Assembly (NCBI GenBank): GCA_017882785.1
Contig: JADGOV010000004.1
Location: forward strand, 1,521-65,520
Direction: 5' to 3'
Origin: Frankiaceae bacterium
GTDB lineage: Bacteria > Actinomycetota > Actinomycetes > JADGOV01
Length of the DNA: 64,000 nucleotides
Shown: positions 10,613 to 58,700 of the stretch, in pieces
How positions within the stretch are numbered: the stretch's first letter is position 1
Layout: every line of letters begins with the position of its first letter
The notes under the pieces: generated by a model
Told to the model about the DNA's origin: nothing
Seen by the model: the letters and a program-made list of their open reading frames with translations, nothing else
Database searches by the model: none
Position numbers and translations under genes: made by a program

Positions 10613-11554
10613 TCAGCTCTCGGCGCGCAGCTGGGCCAGCGCGTCGGCAAGGTCCGCCGGGAGGGGGCTGAGGTAGGCCACCGGGCGGCCGTCGGAAGGG
10701 TGGGCGAAGCCGAGTCGGGAGGCGTGCAGCCACTGCCGACGGAGGCCGAGCCGCTCGGCCAGTGTGGGGTCCGCCCCATAGGCCAGGTCCCCGACGCAGG
10801 GGTGGCGTACGGCGGCCAGGTGCACCCGGATCTGGTGGGTGCGGCCGGTCTCCAGCCGCACGTCGAGCAGCGAGGCCGCCCGGAAGGCCTCGACGGTGTC
10901 GTAGTGGGTGATGCTGGGCTTGCCGCCGGCAACCACCGCGAACTTGTAGTCGGCGCCGGGATGCCGGCCGATCGGCGCGTCGATGGTGCCGCGCAGCGGA
11001 TCCGGATGGCCCTGCACGAGCGCGGCGTACTGCTTGTCCACGTTCCGGTCGCGGAATGCCGACTTGAGCACCGCGTACGCCCGATCGCTCTTGGCCACGA
11101 CCATCAGGCCGGTGGTGCCGACGTCGAGCCGGTGCACGACACCCTGCCGCTCGGCGGCGCCGCTGACGGCCAACGTATGACCGGCCGCCGCCAACCCGCC
11201 GGTGACGGTGGGTCCGTCCCAGCCGGGACTGGGGTGCGCCGCCACCCCGACCGGCTTGTCCACGACCACCAGGTCCTCGTCCTCGGCGACGACGACCAGG
11301 CCGGGGACGACCGCGGCCGAGGCGACCGCCGCCGGTCGCGGGTCGGGCAGGTCGACCTCCAGCCAGTCCCCGGCACGCACCCGGTCGGACTTGGTCGCCG
11401 TGGCGCCACCGAGGCGAGCCGCGCCGGCGATGACGAGGTCGGCGGCCGCTGTCCTGGACACGCCGAGCAGCCGGACGAGGGCCGCGTCCAGGCGCAGCCC
11501 GTCCAACCCGTCGGGCACCGGCAGCCCCCGGCTGGATCGGCTCGGACTAGACAC
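10613..11554 (-). CDS. RluA-family 23S rRNA pseudouridine synthase (RluD-like).
   Basis: Has an S4 domain followed by the [16 protein letters not shown] catalytic motif. Its start overlaps the lspA stop by 8 nt. Confidence 0.85.
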
Positions 11555-12140
11555 CGGCGTCGGGAGGCTTGGCGTCGGGAGAGGTGGCGTCCGAGGTGCG
11601 CCGGCCGTCCAACCCGACGCCCCGGGCGGACAGCAGCACCGCGCACAGCCCGCCCACGACGATCGCGGAGTCGGCCACGTTGAACACCGGCCAGTGCGGC
11701 AGCTCGATCCAGTCCACGACGTGCCCCCGGAACGGGCCCGGAGCGCGGAACATCCGATCGGCGAGGTTGCCCAGCGCGCCGCCGAGGAGCAGGCCGAGGG
11801 TGACCGCCCAGGCTGTGCTGCTCAGCCGGGAGGCGGTCCGGGCGATGACCACCACCACGGTCAACGCCACAGTGGTGAACACGACGGTCGCGCCGGCTCC
11901 GAGCCCGAACGCGGCGCCGGAGTTTCGGGTCAGGGTGAGGTGCACGGCGCCGCCGAGCAGCCGAACTGGCGCCCGGTCGGCGAGTCGGTCGACTGCCACC
12001 AGCTTGCTGAGCAGGTCCAGCGCGGCCACGCCGACGGCGACCGCGCCGAGGACGACCAGAGCCGCCAGCCGACGGGGAGGACCCTCCGCCGAGGTCGTCT
12101 GGACTGCGGCGGACGGCGGCGGTGCGGTCTTCTTACGCAT
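11547..12140 (-). CDS. lspA: Lipoprotein signal peptidase II.
   Basis: 197 aa with NSGAAFGL and FNVADSAI motifs and four TM segments. The lspA-rluD pairing is a conserved arrangement. Confidence 0.85.
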
Positions 12141-12230: not shown

Positions 12231-13607
12231 CTACCCCGCGCTGACCGCGCCGAACTCGACCTGTGGCGCAGCCACCCCGCCCTCACGCATGGCGGCGTCG
12301 AGGATGTCGACGAGCTCGTTGCGGGTCGGCCCGGGGCTGGCCGCCGGCCGCCAGCCGGACTCGTAGACGGCGCGGGCCAGGGGCTCGACGGGGTCCAGGC
12401 AGGAGGGCAGACCGCGCATCGTCAGGTAGCCGGGGCTCGCGCGACCGATCCGGGGGTCCACCGAGGCGGCGGACAGGATCAGGTCCGACGGCAGCCGCCG
12501 GGTCAGGTCGACATCGCCTCCCTGCCAGCGGCGGACGAGGTCACCGTCCATGTACGTGTGGTCGAGCACCCAGGGCAGCATGCTGTCCGTGCACCACGCG
12601 TCGAACGGCTCGCCCACCAGCGCGGGGTCGGTCCCGGTGTCGAGCAGGGCGAGCAGCTGTCGGACCTGGAGGAAGGTGGTGGCCAGGCCGCGACCGAAGG
12701 TCGGCGTGGTGGTCGCGACCGCGTCACCGACACTTACGAGTCCGGGCAGCGCCGGCCGCCCGTCGACGCCCCGCTGTCCGCGGTAGGCGTTGCGGAGCGG
12801 ACCGCCCGGAAGCACGTCGGTGACCGGCAGAGCGCGGCCCGGGTCCGTCCACTCGGCAAGCCCTGGAATGGCCCGGCAGGCGGCCTCGAAGGCGGCCGGG
12901 TGGCGCAGGTTCTTCAGGGCCGCATCGGCCGTCGGCCGCACCAGCAACACCGAGAAGTGACCACGCTCGTGCAGGAAGACGATCGTCTGGTAGCCGTCGA
13001 AGTCGGCCTGCCAGGCAAGGGGATTGGCCATCGGCCCCGGCTCGGCCCCCTTGCGCAGGCGGTACTGACGGTCGACGTAGGCCATGCCGCACAGGCCGCC
13101 GACGGTCGAGGGCGCGCGCAGATCGTCGGCGGCCCGGCCTGACCGTCCGGACGCGTCGACCACGAGGTCGGCTTCCAGTCGGGAGCCGTCGACCACGACC
13201 CCGCGGACCCACCCACCCGAGGACAGCACGCCGTCCACGTGTCCCTGCTCGACCGAGAGGCCCGACACGTCGTTTGAGATCGTCCGGAGCGCGCGTTCGA
13301 AGGTTTCCCGGCGGGACCGGTATCCGCCGGGCACCGGTCCGATGCCGGGGAGTTCGAAGGTGATCGGTTCGGCACCGAGCGCCAGCCAGGCGGTGAACGC
13401 CGCCGGCCACTCGTCCTGCAGGACAAGGCCCACCTGCGGCCGGAAGCCGTGCGCGTGGTGGAACTGCATCACCCCGCGGCGGGGCCAGCGTCCGTGGCGC
13501 GGTGGGCCGGCGTCACGGTCCAGGGCGACGACCTCGTGGCCGCGGCCGGCCAGGGCACTACCGACGAGCAGACCCGCCGGGCCGGCTCCGATGATGGCGA
13601 CCCGCAT
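12231..13607 (-). CDS. FAD-dependent oxidoreductase (flavin monooxygenase / reductase family).
   Basis: ATG at 13607. MRVAIIGAGPAGLLVGSALAGRGHEVVALDRD is a Rossmann FAD-binding fold; a GRSG motif is also present. It is divergent from the TetR gene. Confidence 0.75.
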   Translation of the reverse strand: MRVAIIGAGPAGLLVGSALAGRGHEVVALDRDAGPPRHGRWPRRGVMQFHHAHGFRPQVGLVLQDEWPAAFTAWLALGAEPITFELPGIGPVPGGYRSRRETFERALRTISNDVSGLSVEQGHVDGVLSSGGWVRGVVVDGSRLEADLVVDASGRSGRAADDLRAPSTVGGLCGMAYVDRQYRLRKGAEPGPMANPLAWQADFDGYQTIVFLHERGHFSVLLVRPTADAALKNLRHPAAFEAACRAIPGLAEWTDPGRALPVTDVLPGGPLRNAYRGQRGVDGRPALPGLVSVGDAVATTTPTFGRGLATTFLQVRQLLALLDTGTDPALVGEPFDAWCTDSMLPWVLDHTYMDGDLVRRWQGGDVDLTRRLPSDLILSAASVDPRIGRASPGYLTMRGLPSCLDPVEPLARAVYESGWRPAASPGPTRNELVDILDAAMREGGVAAPQVEFGAVSAG

Positions 13608-13613
13608 GACAGT

Positions 13614-13661
13614 CCTCCGCACTGATAGTCCCTCGCACTGATAGTCCTCCGCACTGATAGT
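13614..13661. promoter_or_regulatory. Three tandem 16-bp direct repeats in the divergent promoter / 5'UTR region; a candidate operator for the adjacent TetR-family regulator.
   Basis: Minus-strand reading: ACTATCAGTGCGGAGG, ACTATCAGTGCGAGGG, ACTATCAGTGCGGAGG, then ctgtcATG. Each unit carries CTATCAGTG, which matches a tetO half-site (9/9), plus an SD-like GGAGG. The last unit sits 5 nt before the oxidoreductase ATG. Confidence 0.4.
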
Positions 13662-13717
13662 GTGGTGACGACGCCAATGGTGTTGCCAACCGCCGCTCGA
13701 CGTCAAGGGACTTTTCT

Positions 13718-14719
13718 GTGCCCATCCGGCCTACCCGCACACCGACCGGCTCGGAGGTCGACACAGCGCGGCCGGCCTATTCCTCGGCAGTGCGCTCCAA
13801 CCAGGCCCGCGCGACCCGGCGGACCATCGTCGCGGTTGCCGGCGAGCTCTTCGTCGAGCACGGCTACGCTGCCACCACAATCGACGCCGTCGCGGCGCGG
13901 GCCGGTGTCGGCCGCAAGACCGTCTTCTCCTCCGTCGGGGGCAAGGGCGCGCTGCTGAAGCTGGCGTGGGACTGGACGATCGCTGGCGACGACGAGCCCA
14001 TCCCCATGTCCGAGCGTCCCGCTGTGCAGGCGATGCTCGCGGAGCGGGACCCGGGCCGGCTGGTCCGGATGTGGGTCGACATGCTGCTGGACGTGGGCTC
14101 GCGGGCAGCACCGCTCGGGGCCGTCGTCCTCGCCGCGGCCGACGTCGACGCCGAGGCCCGTGCCCTTACTGAGATGATCCGCCGCGAAAGCCTGGCTGGC
14201 GCCACCGCGTTCGTCACCCACCTCGCCGGCGGCGGCGGCCTTCGAGCGGACGTCAGCATCGAACGTGGAGCCGACGCCTGTTGGGCGCTGGTCAATTCCC
14301 TGCTCCTGCACCTCCTCGTGGCCACCCGTGGCTGGTCGCTGCAGGAGTACGGCGAGTGGCTGGTGCAGGTAGCCTCCACGATGCTGCTGGAGCCGGCGGG
14401 CCCCGCGAGGTCACGACCCGCCCTGGACATCCGGACCGTGCACGAGCAGACGCGAGAGCGATACCAGGCATCAGTCGACGGTCGGGTCGCGGGGCACCTG
14501 TCATACCAGCTCACCGAACGGCTCGTCCTGTTCACCCACACCGAGGTCGACCCGGGCTTCGACGAGCGCGGCGTGGCCGACGCGCTGGTGCGCAGGGCGC
14601 TCGATGACCTGCGGGCCGACGGCACGCGTCGCGTCGTCCCCCTGTGTCACTTCGTCGCCTGGTGGATCGGCCGGCACCCCGACTACGCCTCGCTGGTGTA
14701 CGACGCCGCCGCCAACTGA
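13718..14719 (+). CDS. TetR-family transcriptional regulator fused to a C-terminal GNAT-like (PF14542-type) acetyltransferase domain.
   Basis: GTG start. The N-terminal HTH is TIVAVAGELFVEHGYAATTIDAVAARAGVGRKTVF. The C-terminal ~95 aa end with RRVVPLCHFVAWWIGRHPDY, which matches the CPFV…HPEY signature of small GNAT acetyltransferases. Confidence 0.7.
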   Translation: MPIRPTRTPTGSEVDTARPAYSSAVRSNQARATRRTIVAVAGELFVEHGYAATTIDAVAARAGVGRKTVFSSVGGKGALLKLAWDWTIAGDDEPIPMSERPAVQAMLAERDPGRLVRMWVDMLLDVGSRAAPLGAVVLAAADVDAEARALTEMIRRESLAGATAFVTHLAGGGGLRADVSIERGADACWALVNSLLLHLLVATRGWSLQEYGEWLVQVASTMLLEPAGPARSRPALDIRTVHEQTRERYQASVDGRVAGHLSYQLTERLVLFTHTEVDPGFDERGVADALVRRALDDLRADGTRRVVPLCHFVAWWIGRHPDYASLVYDAAAN

Positions 14720-14847
14720 ACGACCAAGTCAGGCACCCAACCGCCCCGAAAGGCCGCCGAGCTGCGTGGACGCCACCCAAGATCACGGTAGCCAGCTAGG
14801 CTTAGGACGGCAGCAGGCGTTGAGTGAGTGTTGAGGGGGGCATCGTG

Positions 14848-17800
14848 ATGTTCCGCCCGCTGCCGGCCCGTGTCGACCTGCCGGCGCTGGAACGGGAGGT
14901 CCTCACCCGCTGGCGAGAGTGCGGTGTGTTCGCCCGCTCGCTGGCCCAGACCGCCGACGGACCGCTTTGGGTCTTCTACGAGGGCCCGCCGACGGCGAAT
15001 GGCCGGCCGGGGACGCACCACACCGAGGCCCGCGCCGTCAAGGACATCTACTGCCGGTTCAAGACCATGCAGGGGTTCTCCGTGCCCCGCCGGGCCGGCT
15101 GGGACTGCCACGGCCTGCCCGTGGAACTGGCCGTGGAGAAGGAACTCGGGTTCACCGGCAAGGGTGACATCGAGGCGTACGGCGTGGCCGAGTTCAACGC
15201 CCGCTGCCGGGAGTCCGTGCTGCGCCACGTCGCCGAGTTCGAGCAGCTGACCGAACGGCTGGGCTACTGGTGCGACATGGCGGATGCCTACCGCACGATG
15301 GACCCGCAGTACATCGAGTCGGTCTGGTGGTCGTTGAAGGTCATCTTCGACAAGGGTCTGCTCGTCCAGGATCATCGAGTGTCGCCGTACTGCCCGCGCT
15401 GCGGCACCGGCCTCTCCGACCATGAGGTGGCCCAGGGCTACCTCATGGTCACCGACCCCAGCGTCTACGTACGCTTCCCGGTGACCAGCGGCGAGTGGGC
15501 CGGGCGGGCGTCCCTGCTGGTCTGGACGAGCACCCCCTGGACATTGATCTCCAACACCGCGGTCGCGGTGCACCCGGACGTGACCTACGTCGCCGCCCGG
15601 GTCACCGGACCGGGTGCTGAGACCCTCATCGTGGCCGAGCCGCTGCGTGCCAGGGTCCTCGGCGAGGACGCCGAGGTGCTCGCCACGATCCCCGGGCGGG
15701 AGCTGGAGCACGTCGGCTACGAGCGGCCGTTCGACCTGCTCGCGATCCCGGACGCGCACTACGTCGGCCTGGCCGACTACGTGACCGTGGAGGACGGGAC
15801 CGGCCTGGTCCACCAGTCCCCAGCGTTCGGCGCGGACGACCTCGAGGTGGCCCGCCGCTACGGGCTGCCGGTGGTCAACCCGGTCGGGCTCGACGGACGC
15901 TTCGCCGCCGACCTGCCACTGGTCGGCGGTCAGTTCTTCAAGTCCGCCGACCCCCACATCGTTGCCGACCTCCGCGCCCGGGGCCTGCTCTACCGCTACG
16001 CCGACTACAGCCACAGCTATCCGCACTGCTGGCGCTGCGACACACCGCTGATCTACTACGCGCTGCCGTCGTGGTACATCCGCACCACCGCGATCCAGGA
16101 TGCGCTGCTGCGGGAGAACGCCGCCACCGACTGGCACCCGCCGCGGGTGAAGACCGGGCGCTACGGCGACTGGCTGGCGAACAACGTCGACTGGGCACTG
16201 TCCCGCAACCGCTACTGGGGGACGCCGCTGCCGATCTGGCGCTGCGCGGCGGAGGGCGACCCGCACCTCACCGTGGTGGGTTCCCTTGCCGAGCTCTCCA
16301 CGCTGGCCGGTGCCGATCTCAGCGGTCTCGACCCGCACCGCCCGTACCTCGACGAGGTCACCTTCCCCTGCCCCGAGTGCGGCTTGCCGGCCAGCCGCGT
16401 GCCGGAAGTGATCGACGCCTGGTACGACTCCGGCGCGATGCCGTTCGCCCAGTGGGGTGCGCCGCACCGCCGCGAGGAGGAGTTCCGCGCCGCCTATCCC
16501 GCCCAGTTCATCGCCGAGGCCATCGACCAGACCCGCGGCTGGTTCTACACGCTGATGGCAGTCGGCACGCTGGTATTCGACCGGTCCTCCTACGAGACAG
16601 TGTTGTGCCTGGGCATCATCCTCGACGAGCACGGTCGCAAGATGAGCAAGCACCTGGGCAACGTGCTCGACCCGTTCTCCCTCTTCGACCAGCACGGTGC
16701 GGACGCGGTGCGCTGGTTGATGCTCTGCGGCGGGTCACCCTGGGCGGACCGGCGGGTCGGCAACGAGCCGCTTGCCGAGGTGGTGCGCAAGGTACTGCTC
16801 ACCTACTGGAACACCGTGTCGTTCTTTACCCTCTACGCCAGCGTCAACGACTGGACCCCGCAGAGCGCGCCCCCACCGGCCGTGGCGGAACGGCCGGCTC
16901 TGGACCGGTGGGCGCTGTCGGAGCTGCACGAGACCGTGCGCGTCGTGACCGATGCCCTGGACGGCTTCGACTCAGCCGGTGCCGGTCGTCGCCTGAGCAG
17001 ATTCATCGACGACCTGTCGAACTGGTACGTCCGCCGCTCCCGCCGGCGGTTCTGGGTCGGTCAGCCCGCAGCGCTGGGCACATTGCACGAGTGTCTGGAG
17101 GTGCTCACCCGCCTGCTGGCGCCGTTCGTCCCATTCGTCACCGACGAGGTGCACCAGCGCATCGTCGGCGACGTCCGGCCCGACCTCCCGGACTCGGTGC
17201 ACCTGCGGGAATGGCCAGTCGGTGACCCCGCCCTGGTCGATGAGCCGCTGGCCGAACAGATGGGGCTCGTACGGCGGCTCGTGGAACTGGGACGCGGGGC
17301 CCGGGCGTCGTCCAAGCTGCCCACCCGCCAGCCGCTGGGCCGGGCCTTGGTCGTGGCCCACGGGTGGGACGGGCTGGCGGCCGACTTGCGGGCGGAGGTG
17401 CTCGAGGAGCTGAACGTCACAGCCGTCGAGGTGGGCAGGGTTGAGGTGGACATCTCGGTCAAGCCCAACTTCCGCGAACTCGGGCGCCGTTTCGGGCCAC
17501 GGACCAAGGCCGTCGCCGCGGCGGTTGCCCAACTGGTCCCGGCGCAGGTAGCCGCAGCCCTGGCCGAGACCGGATCGGTGGGTGTGTGGGTCGGAGGCGC
17601 CGACGAGCCGCCGGAGAGGATCAGCGCGGCCGAACTGCAGGTCACCGAGACGCCACGGGAGGGCTGGGCGGCGGCCACGGCCGCCGGTGAGACCGTGGCC
17701 CTGGACCTCACTCTGACCGCTGAGCTGCGCCGCGCCGGCCGGCTACGGGAGGTTGTCCGGTTGGTGCAGGAGGCCCGGAAGACGACCGACCTGGAGGTGG

Positions 17801-17991
17801 CCGACCGGATCGAGTTGTGGTGGCGGGCCGTCGACCCGGTCACCGCGCAGGCGCTGCGGGAGGGCCGCGAGCACCTGGCCGGTGAGGTGCTCGCAGTCAC
17901 CGTCACCGAGGGCGAACCGCTGGCGGCAATCGTGCCCCACGCCGCGGAGGACCTCGGGCTGACATTCTGGCTGCGCGTCGTGGGCGGTTGA
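14848..17991 (+). CDS. ileS: Isoleucyl-tRNA synthetase.
   Basis: GPPTANGRPGTHH (HIGH-class) and KMSKHLGN motifs, with zinc-finger cysteines. The ATG at 14848 is preceded by GAGGGGGG. The track ORF starts at an upstream GTG, 14824. Confidence 0.95.
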   Translation: MFRPLPARVDLPALEREVLTRWRECGVFARSLAQTADGPLWVFYEGPPTANGRPGTHHTEARAVKDIYCRFKTMQGFSVPRRAGWDCHGLPVELAVEKELGFTGKGDIEAYGVAEFNARCRESVLRHVAEFEQLTERLGYWCDMADAYRTMDPQYIESVWWSLKVIFDKGLLVQDHRVSPYCPRCGTGLSDHEVAQGYLMVTDPSVYVRFPVTSGEWAGRASLLVWTSTPWTLISNTAVAVHPDVTYVAARVTGPGAETLIVAEPLRARVLGEDAEVLATIPGRELEHVGYERPFDLLAIPDAHYVGLADYVTVEDGTGLVHQSPAFGADDLEVARRYGLPVVNPVGLDGRFAADLPLVGGQFFKSADPHIVADLRARGLLYRYADYSHSYPHCWRCDTPLIYYALPSWYIRTTAIQDALLRENAATDWHPPRVKTGRYGDWLANNVDWALSRNRYWGTPLPIWRCAAEGDPHLTVVGSLAELSTLAGADLSGLDPHRPYLDEVTFPCPECGLPASRVPEVIDAWYDSGAMPFAQWGAPHRREEEFRAAYPAQFIAEAIDQTRGWFYTLMAVGTLVFDRSSYETVLCLGIILDEHGRKMSKHLGNVLDPFSLFDQHGADAVRWLMLCGGSPWADRRVGNEPLAEVVRKVLLTYWNTVSFFTLYASVNDWTPQSAPPPAVAERPALDRWALSELHETVRVVTDALDGFDSAGAGRRLSRFIDDLSNWYVRRSRRRFWVGQPAALGTLHECLEVLTRLLAPFVPFVTDEVHQRIVGDVRPDLPDSVHLREWPVGDPALVDEPLAEQMGLVRRLVELGRGARASSKLPTRQPLGRALVVAHGWDGLAADLRAEVLEELNVTAVEVGRVEVDISVKPNFRELGRRFGPRTKAVAAAVAQLVPAQVAAALAETGSVGVWVGGADEPPERISAAELQVTETPREGWAAATAAGETVALDLTLTAELRRAGRLREVVRLVQEARKTTDLEVADRIELWWRAVDPVTAQALREGREHLAGEVLAVTVTEGEPLAAIVPHAAEDLGLTFWLRVVGG

Positions 17992-32000: not shown

Positions 32001-32906
32001 TCAACCCGAGACGGTCACGACGTTTGGGGCCGAGATGTCATAGACACGCCCCTTTCGCGACAACAACGCGGCAAGCACATGCGCTTTGTCGACCGATCGG
32101 TCGGCGGACCCCCACACCACCCTGCGACCGTCACGAAGATAGAGGGTGACGGCGTTGCCTGTCGCCGCGTTCAGACGTTGGAGATGTGCGCGCAGCTCGG
32201 GGTTGAGTGCCTGCAACACGCTGAGTACGGCCCGAGTGGCCGGATCCGTACGGCTGACCGTGGCCAGCCGGACAATCGGCAACTGGGCGGGGGCTGAGTT
32301 CACTGTGCCGAAAGCCACGCCGTCCCGGTCCACCAAGGAGAAGCCGCCGGGTCGCGGCACGGCCAGGAGCGGCACGCGCTCGCTGACTCGAATCCGAACG
32401 CTGTGCGGAAAGTGCCGGCGGACGTCGACCGCGGCCACCGCGGGCAACGCGGCCACCCGGCGTGCGATCGCACCCGTGTCCAGCCGCGCCAGGGGGACCC
32501 CCGAGGGCACGCGGGCCGCCTGCCGGACCTCCTGGCTGGACACTCGAGAGGTGCCGGTCACACTCACGCCGCGGGCGAGGAAGAGGTGGGAGAACAGGAG
32601 CAGGTAGCCGACACCGACCAAGGTGGCGACCACGAGCGGCAGGGCCAGGCGGAGCGGCACTCGGACGGCCCGCAGACGGACGTGCCGGAGCCAGTCGGCG
32701 GGCACCCGAACGCTGGGCACCCGAACGCTGGGCAGACGAACGCTGGGCAGACGAAAAGCGGGCAGCCCAGAGGGCCACCGCAGCCTGTGACCCCACCGAG
32801 CGGAGGGCGGCCGGCCGGCGGAGTCCGCAGCCTCGCCGGTCGAGGCCGCCTGGTCAGGGATCGGCGCCGCCTGCCCGGCCGGGTCCGGCCGACGTCTCCT
32901 CAGCAC
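32001..32906 (-). CDS. ftsQ: Cell division protein FtsQ/DivIB.
   Basis: A single TM segment is followed by POTRA and FtsQ beta domains (…VSVTGTSRVSSQEVRQAA…). The N-terminal tail contains a (L/V)PSVR pentapeptide ×4 encoded by a 15-bp tandem repeat. The start is uncertain. Confidence 0.75.
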   Translation of the reverse strand: MLRRRRPDPAGQAAPIPDQAASTGEAADSAGRPPSARWGHRLRWPSGLPAFRLPSVRLPSVRVPSVRVPADWLRHVRLRAVRVPLRLALPLVVATLVGVGYLLLFSHLFLARGVSVTGTSRVSSQEVRQAARVPSGVPLARLDTGAIARRVAALPAVAAVDVRRHFPHSVRIRVSERVPLLAVPRPGGFSLVDRDGVAFGTVNSAPAQLPIVRLATVSRTDPATRAVLSVLQALNPELRAHLQRLNAATGNAVTLYLRDGRRVVWGSADRSVDKAHVLAALLSRKGRVYDISAPNVVTVSG

Positions 32907-44571: not shown

Positions 44572-45265
<694 letters not shown>

Positions 45266-54438: not shown

Positions 54439-55638
54439 TCACGGTCCGGGGTCCGGCGGACGGCGGCCGAAGAGCGTCCCGGGGCGCACGGCACCGGCGC
54501 CGAAACGTCGAGCAGCCCGGTCGGCTGCCTGCTCGGCCTCCCGCCAGCCGAAGGCCCGCTGGCCGAGCACGAGTTGCCGCGGTTGGGCAGCTGCCGGGCC
54601 CAGCCCCTCCACCCGGACGCCGACCAGCCGGAGCCGAGCCCGCTGCAAGCCCAGACGATCGACCAACGCGGTGGCCACCGCGTAGATGTCTCGGCCCACG
54701 TCGGTCGCCTCGGGCAGCGTTCGCGACCGCGTTATCGTGCTGAAGTCGGAAAATCGAATCTTGACGCTGACGGTGCGGCCGACCTGCCCGCTGTCCCGGA
54801 GCCGGCCTGCGGTGCGTTCGGACAGCCGGAGCAGCTCCCGGCGGATCCGTACCGGATCGTCCACGTCCCGCTCGAAGGTCTCCTCCGAGCCGATGCTCCG
54901 ATCGGGCTCAGTGGGGATGACCGATCGTGGATCGCGGCCCCAGGCGAGGGCGGCCAGGTGGGCACCGGCCGCCGATCCGACGGCCCGTTGCAAGGTGGAT
55001 ACCGGGGTGTCCGCCAGATCACCCACCGTCCGCAGGCCGAGTCGGAGAAGGCTCTCCTCGGTGCGCTCCCCCACACCCCACAGGGCGGCCACTGGCAGTG
55101 GATGCAGGAAGGCGACCACCCGTTCGGGCGGCACCGCCAGCAGTCCGTCGGGCTTGGCCCGCGTCGAGGCCAGCTTGGCGACGAACTTGGTGCTGGCCAC
55201 CCCGACCGAGCAGGGGATGTCCTGCTCGTCGGCGATCCGGGCACGGATCCACTCGCCGATCTCGACCGGCCCGCCCAGTCGGCGACGGGCACCGGACACC
55301 TCGAGGAAGGCCTCGTCGAGCGCGATCGGTTCGACCAGCGGGGTGACCGATCGGAACACCTCCATGATGCCGGCGGACACCGCGGAGTAGGCGGCGAAGT
55401 CGGGCGGGATCACGACCGCGTCCGGGCAGAGTCGGTGGGCACGGCTCATGGGTAGCGCGCTGCGCACACCGAAGGCCCGCGCCTCATACGTTGCCGACAG
55501 CACGACCCCACGGGTGCTGGAGCCACCCACGATCACCGGCTGGCCGCGCAGCTCGGGGTGCCGCCGCAGTTCCACGCTGGCGTAGAAGGCGTCCATGTCG
55601 ACGTGCAGGATCGAGCACGCCGCCGCGTGCCCTGTCAT
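54439..55638 (-). CDS. dinB: DNA polymerase IV (Y-family, DinB).
   Basis: ILHVDMDAFYASVE…GVASTKFVAKLAS… are Y-family pol motifs. It lies downstream of dnaE2 on the same strand. Confidence 0.85.
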   Translation of the reverse strand: MTGHAAACSILHVDMDAFYASVELRRHPELRGQPVIVGGSSTRGVVLSATYEARAFGVRSALPMSRAHRLCPDAVVIPPDFAAYSAVSAGIMEVFRSVTPLVEPIALDEAFLEVSGARRRLGGPVEIGEWIRARIADEQDIPCSVGVASTKFVAKLASTRAKPDGLLAVPPERVVAFLHPLPVAALWGVGERTEESLLRLGLRTVGDLADTPVSTLQRAVGSAAGAHLAALAWGRDPRSVIPTEPDRSIGSEETFERDVDDPVRIRRELLRLSERTAGRLRDSGQVGRTVSVKIRFSDFSTITRSRTLPEATDVGRDIYAVATALVDRLGLQRARLRLVGVRVEGLGPAAAQPRQLVLGQRAFGWREAEQAADRAARRFGAGAVRPGTLFGRRPPDPGP

Positions 55639-55671
55639 GGGAACGCTGTCATGGGAACGCTGTCATGTGGA
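55634..55671 (-). repeat. Tandem 14-bp duplication spanning the dinB start codon, creating two stacked mini-uORFs.
   Basis: Minus strand: ATGACAGCGTTCCC ATGACAGCGTTCCC ATGACAGGGCACG. The first two ATGs open 5-codon ORFs (MTAFP*), and each TGA overlaps the next ATG (ATGA). Confidence 0.6.
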
Positions 55672-55769: not shown

Positions 55770-58700
55770 TCATCGGCCGGCGCTGCCGGAACTGGAATGC
55801 CAGAGCTTGCGCGAAGTGCCGCCGCTCGCCGGCTGCCCACCCGCCGACCTGGCTCCCACCTGCGCACCGCCCACCGGGACGGGGGCCGGCACGGGTCGGG
55901 TGGACCGGCTCTCGGCTGCCCCGCGCACAGCAGCCTCGAGCACCGCTGTCGTCCGCCCGGGCGGACGGGCCAGGATTCTCGCCACCGCGGGCAGGCCACC
56001 GTCGACCCAGCTGGCACACAGGGTAGGCAGCTCCCAACAGCCGGTTGCCCGGATCGAGATGCCGCGCGGTCCGGTGCGGCGGGTAATTCCGCGCAGCACC
56101 AGCAACCAGGAGTTGAACAGCGTGCTCGCGTACCCCACCTGGGCGTCTTCGAAGAACGTCGCGTCCAACGCCCCGGTCGCGTCGTCGAGGGTGACGAAGA
56201 CCACCCGGCGGCCCGAACGCACCGGTGGGGTCTGGGTCGCCACCTTCACCCCCGCGACGAGTACCTCCGACCGGGTCCGGCGGCAGAGCAGATCGCGTGC
56301 CCGGGTGACACCGAGGGCGTCCATGAACGGGACGTACCCGGCGAGCACGTGCTGGCTGGCGTCGAGGCCCAGCACGTCGAGTTCGGCCCGCACGCGCTCG
56401 GCGCCGTTCATTTCCGGCAGCCCGCTCGGCGCCACCACCCCCGGTGCGTCCCCGAGGTCGAGGGTGAGCTGGACGGCGAGGTCGGCCGGGGCCGGTGCGG
56501 CCGCCTGAGATTGCCGGGCCGCCAACTCCCGGACGGTGAGCGCGCCGGCCGCAGCCGTGATGCCGTCCGTGGCGCCCGGACCGGACGGCAGAACCGCGGC
56601 CGGACGGTGACGGCCGCGGACGGACCGCGCAGCCCTGGCGGTCGACCGACTCCAGCTGTCCAGTTCGACGACCTGGAGCAGGAGATCTCGGCGGGTCACC
56701 CGCCCCCGGCGACGTACGATCAGCGCCGAGCCAATGCCGTACAGATCGTCGAAGGCGCCAGCCACCACCAGCCGCTCGGCGATCGGCCGGGACACCCCGG
56801 CCCGGTGCCAGAAGTCGGAAAGTGACGCGTAGGGCCGGCCTGCGACGGTCCGGGCCATCTCGGCCTCCGTGATGCCCTTGACGTCGGCCAGGCTGAGTCG
56901 GATGCCGTAGTCCCGACCGTCGGGTAGTCCCGGCGGCGGTGCGGACCGCGGCTGGGCGTCGAGGATCTCCGGCGGTGGCTCGTCGTAGCGGCCTACCCGT
57001 TCGATGCGGTACTGCCCGTCGGAGCGGTTGACATCCAGGCCGAGCACGGCGATACCGAGCTGGCGGGCGTCGTCGAGAATGAGCCGCTTGGGGTACATGC
57101 CGGGGTCATGGGTCAGCACACCGGCCAAGAATGCCGCCGGATGGTGTGCCTTGAGCCAGGCCGACTGGTAGGTAGGCACGGCGAACGCCGCCGCGTGCGC
57201 CTTGCAGAAACCGAACGATCCGAAGCCCTTGAGAACCTCCCAGACCTGTTCGACGGTGGCGAGCGGATAGCCGTGGTCGAGCGCGGCGGGCAGGAACCAG
57301 GTCCTGACCTCTGGCTGGCCGAGTGGATCACCGAGCGCGCGCCGGACCTCGTCGGCCTCGGCGAGGGAGCACCCGGTGAACGTGGCGACGATGCACAGCA
57401 CCTGCTCGTGGAAGACGACGACGCCGCGGGTCTCCGCGAGCACTGGCTCCAGATCCGGATGGAGGTAGCTGGGCTGCCGCCAGCCCTGCCGGGCTTCGAG
57501 GAACGGGGTAACCATGTCGGTTTTGACCGGCCCCGGCCGGAACAGCGAGATGTCGATGATCAAATCGGCGAACGTCTCCGGCGCGAACTTCCCGATCAAT
57601 TCACGCTGGCCGGGCGATTCGATCTGGAAACAACCGAGTGTCTTGGTGGACTGCACCAGCGCGTAGGTAGCCGGATCATCACGCGGCACCGCGTCGATGT
57701 CGATCTCGACCCCGTCGACCCGACGCGCCTCGCCCACGGCGTGCGCGATGGCGGACTGCATGCGGATACCGAGCAGGTCGAGCTTGAGCAATCCCAGCGC
57801 CTCGACGTCGTCCTTGTCGAACTGGCTCATCGGAAACCCCAGCCAGCTCGACTCGACCGGGGTGCGATCGAGCAACGTGGCGTCGGAGAGCACCACTCCG
57901 CATGGGTGCAGCGCGATGTGCCGGGGCAGGCCGTCGAGGCGCTCCACCAGTCGGAACAGCAGATCCAGCCGACCACCGCGGCCGTCCGGGTCGGCCAAAC
58001 CGCTGGCCCGCAGCTCCGGCAGATCACGCAGCGCCGCCCGTACCTGGCTGGCCCGCAGATGCGGGAACGCCTTGGCGATCGTGTCGATCTCCCCCGGTGG
58101 CAGGCCGAGGGCAGCCCCGACGTCGCGGATCGCGTGCCGGACGCGGTAGGTGTCCATCATCGACACGCACGCGCAACGCTCGGCGCCGAAGCGGGCGAGC
58201 ACCGCCTCGTAGACCTCGGTCCGCCGGGCGGACTCGACGTCGATGTCGATATCAGGCAGTTGGTGACGCAGCGGTGAGAGAAAGCGCTCCATCAGCAGCC
58301 CGTGCTGCAGCGGGTCGACGTCGGAGACCCCGAGCAGGTAGGTGACCAGGCTGCCGGCACCGGACCCGCGGGCGGCGCAACGCACCCTCATACCCTTGAT
58401 GATCTCCACCACGTCGCCGACGGTGAGGAAGTACGACGCGTAGCCCAGCTTGGCGATCACTGTCAGTTCCTCGTCCAGCCGGCGCTCGGCCTCAGCGGTG
58501 GCCGGCCGGCCGCGCCGCCCGTACCCGGCCGTACAGCGGGCCCGGAGCACCGCGTCCGCCGCTCCGGCACTGCCCAGACCGGCACTGCCCAGACCGGCAC
58601 TGCCCAGACCGGTGCCCAACTCGGGGAAGTGCACCTCGCCGAGACCCAGGCCGCCGGCGCCGGGAACCAGCGCGCACTGCTCGGCGACGAGTCGGGTACG

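Follow-up and report, generated by a model that had tools for sequence, protein, structure and literature searches.

We examined two divergently transcribed genes and the region between them in a 64,000-nucleotide stretch of the genome of a Frankiaceae bacterium (contig JADGOV010000004.1; hereafter the window). The gene on the minus strand (positions 12231–13607, with its ATG at 13607 and its stop at 12231) encodes a 458-residue protein predicted to be a flavin adenine dinucleotide (FAD)-dependent monooxygenase. The gene on the plus strand (13718–14719, with a GTG at 13718 and the stop at 14719) encodes a 333-residue protein in which a TetR-type regulator is fused to a GNAT domain; its GTG start codon is preceded by AAGGGA, and the start agrees with that of orthologues. 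The gap between the two genes is 110 bp (13608–13717). The open reading frames (ORFs) thus bear out an earlier note on this DNA (the original prediction), which had placed a 333-residue regulator 110 bp from a divergent FAD gene. We propose, with moderate confidence, that the locus is best explained as a self-regulated two-gene cassette, with a TetR repressor divergent from an epoxidase-type monooxygenase, that carries an accessory GNAT domain and a recent triplication within its intergenic region.

Pfam searches with the 333-residue protein identified a TetR_N helix-turn-helix at residues 37–81 (positions 13826–13960, plus strand; PF00440, E 8.5e-10, 38.7 bits against a cut-off of 24) and an Acetyltransf_CG domain (PF14542) at residues 248–325 (E 2.9e-21, 75.8 bits against a cut-off of 30); both of the expected domains therefore score above their cut-offs. 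The AlphaFold2 model of the protein has a mean predicted local distance difference test score (pLDDT) of 91.2 and a predicted template-modelling (TM) score of 0.76. In Foldseek comparisons, the N-terminal 225 residues of the model matched TtgR, EthR and AcrR with target-normalised TM scores of 0.70–0.76, and TtgR and NalC were also among the profile matches of the TetR part. Ten helices lie between residues 24 and 223, as expected of an all-helical ligand-binding and dimerisation domain. The C-terminal part has predicted strands at residues 238–243, 248–253, 256–265, 269–277 and 305–308 and helices at 286–301 and 311–326, which is the order of the GNAT core fold (beta1–4, helix, beta5, helix), and it superimposes on E. 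coli YjdJ (5i0c) with a TM score of 0.82 and a root-mean-square deviation of 2.4 Å. YjdJ was also matched by the fusion protein at E 2.9e-7 in a profile search of PDB sequences. Taking Pfam, YjdJ and Foldseek matches together, we place the minimal GNAT domain at residues 247–328 (14456–14701, plus strand), separated from the TetR part by an 18-residue linker at residues 229–246 (14402–14455, plus strand; pLDDT 73–81). The C-terminal acetyltransferase-type domain of the original prediction is therefore present as a fold. NCBIfam returned only sub-threshold TetR-type matches for the fusion protein and none at the equivalog level, including the tetracycline-associated model.

We searched 5.8 billion proteins for homologues and found the combination of TetR_N and PF14542 in 83 of the 120 matches listed, 79 of them full-length, down to 56% identity. 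These sequences were drawn from ENA, JGI, NCBI and Logan, and their labels are mostly Nocardioidaceae. They align end to end, with only the linker poorly aligned among orthologues, and in a neighbour-joining tree built from the TetR part they group as a single clade. Pairwise ratios of nonsynonymous to synonymous substitution rates (dN/dS) were 0.13–0.43 for the helix-turn-helix, 0.27–0.54 for the ligand-binding domain and 0.15–0.50 for the GNAT domain, and about 1 for the linker in most pairs, indicating purifying selection on both domains with a freely evolving linker between them. These comparisons argue that the fusion is genuine and conserved rather than the product of a frameshift. A GNAT-less protein near the base of the fusion clade (P0087, locus L113) ends cleanly after the ligand-binding domain and shows no GNAT remnant, and we therefore rejected it as an unfused intermediate in which a TetR gene is followed by a GNAT gene. 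Within the ligand-binding domain, Cys188-Trp189 is invariant in 21 aligned fusions, and its conservation stays at 90% or more once GNAT-less relatives are added.

The flavoenzyme is less readily classified by domain models. Pfam and NCBIfam gave only weak matches to Trp_halogenase, FAD_binding_3 and QhpG, and the best match among PDB sequences was to Lsd18/LasC, over the full length, at E 3e-5. The AlphaFold2 model (pLDDT 87.9) was closest in Foldseek to Lsd18 and MonCI (TM 0.65–0.69, E 1e-21), followed by the brominase Bmp2, squalene epoxidase, further halogenases, KMO and QhpG. The sequence contains GAGPAG at residues 7–12, DLVVDASG at 147–154 (DASG at 151) and GDAVATTTPTFGRG at 294–307, and the GxGxxG, DG and GD fingerprints that these represent, together with the fold, are those of group A flavoprotein monooxygenases. 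The protein is thus predicted from sequence and structural model to be a group A flavoprotein monooxygenase of the epoxidase type (Lsd18/MonCI/squalene-epoxidase), and its substrate is probably hydrophobic. The epoxidases Lsd18, MonCI and squalene epoxidase match it best in both sequence and structure and share all three motifs, but identity is only ~22%, and no polyketide or terpene gene cluster surrounds the window gene. We rejected a halogenase identity, since the WxWxIP motif is absent and the PF04820 match is weak and partial. Neither TetX nor Rox turned up in the PDB sequence search or within the 50 best structure matches, and the suggestion of an antibiotic module acting on tetracyclines or rifamycins is not supported for an enzyme whose nearest structural matches are Lsd18, MonCI and squalene epoxidase. 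The family is very conserved and has more than 2,000 relatives. Copies in Modestobacter and Blastococcus are 75–85% identical and occur in varied contexts without a TetR gene.

We compared 105 loci fetched from genomes and metagenomes and found the divergent FAD–TetR pair in most of those where the flank was long enough; the divergent arrangement of flavoenzyme and regulator noted originally is thus conserved in dozens of loci. The same pair also occurs with a GNAT-less TetR protein, 44–55% identical, in Acidimicrobiia, Hoyosella and soil metagenome contigs. No third gene common to the cassettes across lineages was found in the fetched loci. In a hidden Markov model search of six-frame ORFs, no separate PF14542 gene was found within 3–4 kb of the GNAT-less cassettes in ~70 loci; the only PF14542 neighbour was in a Modestobacter locus (L106) that itself lacks the TetR gene. 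In the window, the cassette is flanked by rluD/lspA and ileS (10613–12140 and 14824–17991), a setting seen in this species alone; the other lineages examined all have the cassette elsewhere, indicating that the two-gene unit has moved as a block. At the level of aligned sequence, comparison shows a conserved core that consists of the FAD gene, two 13-bp palindromes and the TetR gene, and the GNAT domain is a single clade-specific addition to this older two-gene cassette.

The aligned intergenic regions share a layout in which the FAD start codon is followed, reading towards the TetR gene, by the ribosome-binding site (RBS), ACACTnnnAGTGT, 7 nt and ACACYnnnRGTGT. We interpret the two 13-bp palindromes (the first being ACACTnnnAGTGT; consensus ACACT-N3-AGTGT), with centres 20 bp apart, as the operator of this family; at least 16 relatives have the same 20-bp spacing. 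We scored the window with a weight matrix built from 28 relatives outside the window's own lineage. Putative operator site 1, the 13-bp palindrome GCACTGATAGTGT at 13651–13663, scored 19.1 bits and was the top-scoring site in the whole window; it was also the only match to ACACTNNNAGTGT with at most one mismatch, and its position is conserved in relatives. Putative site 2, the degenerate palindrome ACGCCAATGGTGT at 13671–13683, scored 9.0 bits and ranked fifth. The expectation that the repeat region would hold sequences bound by the regulator is therefore consistent with the conserved paired palindromes and with the placement of the best score at site 1. The same region had been linked to the tetracycline operator through a 9-nt string, CTATCAGTG, said to be identical to a tetO half-site. 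The string is indeed shared with what we take to be the tetO sequence, but it straddles one arm and the centre of the palindrome and lies 3 bp off the tetO register. The tetO operator is a 19-bp palindrome with its dyad at the central base; the dyad here would pass through the N3 of ACACT-N3-AGTGT, in the other register, and we therefore read the identity as coincidental. The cassette resembles the Tn10-type TetR/tetO system in its TetR-family regulator, its divergent gene pair, its two candidate operators between the genes and the shared 9-nt string; it differs in the 3-bp shift of the dyad, in having a flavoenzyme in place of an efflux pump (tetA) and in lacking an equivalog-level NCBIfam match.

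Putative site 1 adjoins an array of short tandem repeats. Tandem Repeats Finder reported a period of 16 and 3.8 copies at 13602–13661, corresponding on the minus strand to unit A (13614–13629), an imperfect unit B (13630–13645), unit C (13646–13661), which runs into the complete site 1, and a degenerate fourth unit (13602–13613, the array ending at 13602) that contains the FAD start codon and reads ACTGTC-ATG-CGGGTC on the minus strand from 13613 down to ~13599. Units A and C are CCTCCGCACTGATAGT on the plus strand (ACTATCAGTGCGGAGG on the minus strand), and unit B is CCCTCGCACTGATAGT (ACTATCAGTGCGAGGG on the minus strand). For the core GCACTGATAGT, three occurrences were counted in the window against 0.33 expected, a number that 0 of 100 shuffled sequences reached. 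The three 16-bp repeats described in the original prediction are therefore present, but not all of them contain GGAGG: unit B, which differs from A and C at 2 of 16 positions, has GAGGG instead, and the degenerate fourth unit comes in addition. The GGAGG of unit A (13618–13614, minus strand) lies 6 nt before the ATG and corresponds to the RBS of the FAD gene, as had been proposed for one of the copies. The duplicated unit comprises the RBS and the left 11 bp of site 1, and each extra copy consequently carries an operator-like sequence, GCACTGATAGTCC, at 13619–13631 in unit A and 13635–13647 in unit B; both score 10.6 bits and rank third and fourth in the window, above native site 2. Single-copy relatives align to unit C, suggesting that this unit is the ancestral copy.

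The triplication is confined to the window's species. It is present in the window and in two further strains, L024 and L026 (99.68% and 99.79% identical, respectively, over ~7 kb), and its recurrence in two independent metagenome assemblies indicates that it is not an assembly artefact. By contrast, L025, the closest relative outside the species (TetR part 86–87% identical), has a single copy, as do 55 of 55 distinct intergenic regions from other lineages; among all 58 distinct intergenic regions, a tandem duplication of at least 12 bp occurs only in the window's lineage. In L026, positions 13625–13626 inside unit A are missing, which destroys the palindrome core of that unit. From these comparisons we interpret the repeats as a recent tandem triplication fixed in one species, and not as part of the conserved design.

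The FAD leader contains further candidate signals. An out-of-frame upstream ORF of 26 codons (13558–13638, minus strand), itself a product of the triplication, starts at a GTG at 13638, 7 nt after the GGAGG of unit C, and overlaps the FAD start codon. An alternative in-frame GTG (13620–13622, minus strand) lies 7 nt after the GAGGG of unit B and, if used, would extend the FAD protein by MRRTV. Shortly before the TetR start, GTCAAG (13702–13707; on the FAD-sense strand, TTGAC) is found in nearly every intergenic region aligned and is kept even where the rest of the region has diverged. This sequence is a possible -35 element for the FAD promoter, with CACCAT (13682–13677), 18 nt downstream and inside site 2, as the -10 element; if so, site 1 and the repeats would lie within the FAD 5' leader. 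A scan of 13450–13900 found no intrinsic terminator. We rejected an RNA element in the leader, since shuffled versions of the leader fold more stably than the leader itself (z = +1.71) and Rfam contains no match to it; the idea that the repeats form an RNA structure is thus not supported.

We compared the motifs of the GNAT domain in the 79 full-length fusions with those in six free-standing sequences. Free-standing relatives (43–55% identical) and YjdJ keep the motif H-T-E/D-V...G-x-G-(V/I)-(G/A) and a conserved cysteine, within PLCPF in most, and the histidine, Gly283, Gly285 and the cysteine are invariant in the six sequences compared, all of which have H-T-E-V...E-G-x-G-V-G; Trp316 is invariant or nearly so in these six. 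In the fusions, position 274 is histidine in 27 of 79 and arginine in 40, and position 283 is glycine in 13 and aspartate in 50. The motif-A glycine, Gly285, is kept in 52 and lost in 27 (arginine in 14, deleted in 7), and the position of Gly287 is alanine in 64. Nearly invariant in the fusions are Thr275, Cys310 (74/79), Trp316 (79/79) and His320, and Trp315 is a gain (73/79) that creates a clade-specific WW pair at residues 315–316. The window copy reads HTEV, D-E-R-G-V-A and PLCH at the three motifs. It shares with the minimal GNATs of PF14542/COG2388, such as YjdJ and Arabidopsis At1g77540, the family, the fold, the PLC(P/H)(F/Y) cysteine motif and RHPDY; those proteins are free-standing, whereas here the domain is tethered to TetR, has the WW pair and belongs to a clade with a variable histidine and glycine loop. 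That His274 drifts in the fusions, although it is invariant in free-standing proteins, speaks against a catalytic role conserved in the clade, and catalysis across the fusion clade appears doubtful. Within the window and its nearest relatives, which form the best-preserved subgroup, His274 is kept in 12 of 18, Gly285 in 17 of 18 and Cys310 in 18 of 18.

Based on these observations, we propose that two repressor dimers would occupy sites 1 and 2, by analogy with other TetR-family systems, and would block the FAD promoter and probably also the repressor's own. The dimers would be released when a small hydrophobic ligand, either the substrate of the enzyme or a relative of it, fills the helical pocket. 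In one actinobacterial clade (labelled Nocardioidaceae), the PF14542 domain was added at the TetR C-terminus through the freely evolving linker, and it would act mainly as an accessory binding or regulatory module rather than as a dedicated acetyltransferase; it could provide a second input, with CoA or acyl-CoA as the likeliest class of ligand, or an oligomerisation surface. The triplication would have lengthened the FAD leader by ~32 nt and supplied two extra weak operator-like sites and two extra Shine-Dalgarno/GTG pairs, one of which opens the out-of-frame ORF across the true start; any effect would be to lower basal expression of the enzyme. Several points weigh against parts of this account. 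No sigma-70 consensus promoter was found in a scan of 13450–13900. Judging by the 2-bp deletion in L026, the extra copies do not seem to be under constraint as operators, and the functional effect of the triplication may be nil. The window copy of the GNAT domain keeps His274, Gly285-x-Ala287 and Cys310, and the window protein could still bind acetyl-CoA and transfer its acetyl group. The pyrophosphate loop of GNATs contacts CoA through backbone amides (GNAT review), so that decay of the loop sequence is no proof of lost CoA binding, and such binding may survive changes in the glycine loop. Finally, a Modestobacter marinus FAD gene, 80% identical to that of the window and without a TetR gene, is divergent from a free-standing canonical PF14542 gene (L106, 3322–3666 in JABGCH010000009.1), a pairing that hints at an enzymatic partnership of GNAT and flavoenzyme; pirin, FMN-reductase and CMD (AhpD-like) genes lie nearby.

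An alternative, in line with the original prediction, is that the protein is a bifunctional sensor and enzyme. In this reading an active GNAT domain acetylates the inducer or the product of the monooxygenase, such as a hydroxylated compound or one derived from an epoxide, and a single polypeptide would combine sensing with detoxification. The PF14542 score well above cut-off, the YjdJ-like fold, the purifying selection on the domain and the retained residues in the window's subgroup are consistent with this possibility, as are the Modestobacter marinus pairing and the position of P0124. P0124, which at 55% identity is the free-standing relative closest to the fused domain, is encoded divergently from a DAO and Rieske FAD oxidoreductase and is followed by a NUDIX gene (L114, 2389–4300, and L115); this oxidoreductase is from a different family than the window's FAD enzyme. 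Nevertheless, we consider the bifunctional reading rather unlikely. Across the clade the histidine is kept in only 27 of 79 fusions, Gly283 is replaced by aspartate in 50 and Gly285 is arginine or deleted in 21; most lineages run the FAD–TetR cassette with no GNAT domain, and in ~70 such loci no separate PF14542 gene was found within 3–4 kb; an orthologue of the FAD gene is found without a GNAT neighbour in five other genomes; and our literature searches found no PF14542 member with a defined physiological substrate. The suggestion that the GNAT domain acetylates the regulator's own ligand therefore finds little favour, even though the window copy itself keeps His274, Gly285 and Ala287. A more speculative reading, which we think quite improbable, is that the PF14542 domain is a thiol or CoA redox sensor, in which the near-invariant Cys310 reacts with CoA, acyl-CoA or an oxidant and alters DNA binding by the TetR part through the linker. 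This reading rests on the redox-flavoured fusion partners of PF14542, on the Modestobacter neighbours and on the retention of the cysteine while the histidine and glycine loop drift. If it were correct, the repressor would integrate a hydrophobic ligand in the TetR pocket with CoA or redox state.

The repeats raise a similar choice. They could be a selected array in which the extra operator copies recruit dimers cooperatively and the Shine-Dalgarno/GTG pairs adjust translation, so that the species controls the enzyme more tightly. The unit A and B sites do score above native site 2, the Shine-Dalgarno/GTG pairs are correctly spaced, and all three strains, which differ from one another at 0.2–0.3% of positions, carry the array as a fixed feature; moreover, EthR binds as four dimers across a 55-bp stretch that lies upstream of a flavin monooxygenase gene transcribed divergently (PMC3326297). 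However, the array occurs in one species only among the 58 distinct intergenic regions, its 16-bp spacing differs from the conserved 20 bp, and the L026 deletion has wrecked the palindrome core of unit A. The window also contains other tandem duplications of 14–15 bp, one of them across another start codon, which fits a general mutational process of slippage rather than a designed array. We therefore regard a selected array as unlikely, and favour the recent tandem triplication described above. It is scarcely credible that the fusion or the repeats are artefacts, in the form of a frameshift that joined two genes or of an assembly error. Split tblastn matches in different frames were seen for the FAD gene of L002, L009 and L010 and for the TetR gene of L011, suggesting indel errors in related loci; these may be errors in long-read metagenome-assembled genomes, or the genes may be real pseudogenes. 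By contrast, the fusion is read in a single frame in 79 clusters from several data sources, both of its domains are under selection, the AlphaFold2 model is confident across the junction, and the repeats recur in two independent assemblies; as far as sequence data can show, the artefact reading, including the frameshift considered in the original prediction, is refuted.

The nearest analogue of the proposed cassette is EthR/EthA of Mycobacterium tuberculosis. We take EthA to be a Baeyer-Villiger monooxygenase, whereas the window enzyme would be of group A and of the Lsd18/MonCI type. EthR, which is among the Foldseek matches of the TetR part (target-normalised TM ~0.72), has no GNAT domain, and its operator is 55 bp long, against the two 13-bp palindromes predicted here. 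In both cases a TetR repressor is divergent from a flavin monooxygenase, with several dimers on an intergenic operator (PMC3326297), the binding of dimers being predicted here from sequence. For the GNAT domain as a regulatory module, a precedent is PanM (PanZ), a GNAT-fold protein that serves as an acetyl-CoA sensor and not as an enzyme (PMC3398536); PanM comes from another GNAT subfamily, has no DNA-binding domain fused to it and exerts its effect on the maturation of PanD.

To our knowledge, TetR-family repressors almost always have two domains, the helix-turn-helix and the helical ligand pocket. The ~80 clusters with a selected third domain of GNAT fold therefore offer a natural system for studying how an extra input comes to be wired into a one-component regulator, and the fusion clade offers a route to the function of the poorly understood PF14542 minimal GNAT domain. 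The triplication is a clean, dated case of a change in operator and RBS copy number by short tandem duplication, with built-in comparisons in the single-copy relatives and in the strain whose copy is damaged. The core cassette itself is of an ordinary kind, and neither the fusion nor the triplication touches a long-standing open question; we regard the locus as an uncharacterised variant that is moderately relevant to the fields of one-component regulators and PF14542 and holds no surprise of principle. Database labels of these proteins are only "AcrR family regulator" or "N-acetyltransferase", and literature searches on TetR-GNAT fusions, PF14542, YjdJ and At1g77540 found no study of the TetR-PF14542 architecture.

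Two further sets of observations concern the PF14542 family and the window as a whole. A word-indexed search with the GNAT domain alone as query returned 8 proteins, and we therefore used an exhaustive search. Among its 150 best representatives, PF14542 is mostly a single-domain protein of 90–130 residues; occasional fusions were to Pyr_redox_2, pirin, glutaredoxin/GST-N and DUF5996 (P0268, P0328, P0394 and P0375). Elsewhere in the window there are other short near-perfect tandem duplications of 14–15 bp, and the genome seems prone to duplications of 14–16 bp. A perfect 14-bp repeat of CTGTCATGGGAACG (2.6 copies, 55632–55667) lies across the ATG of a minus-strand ORF (54439–55638), resulting in three ATGs 14 nt apart. 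A repeat of CCGGCACTGCCCAGA (3.3 copies, 100% identical, 58564–58612) lies inside long ORFs, a 15-bp unit is present in 3.3–3.9 copies at 32700–32765, and GAGGGT is repeated nine times at 44773–44826.

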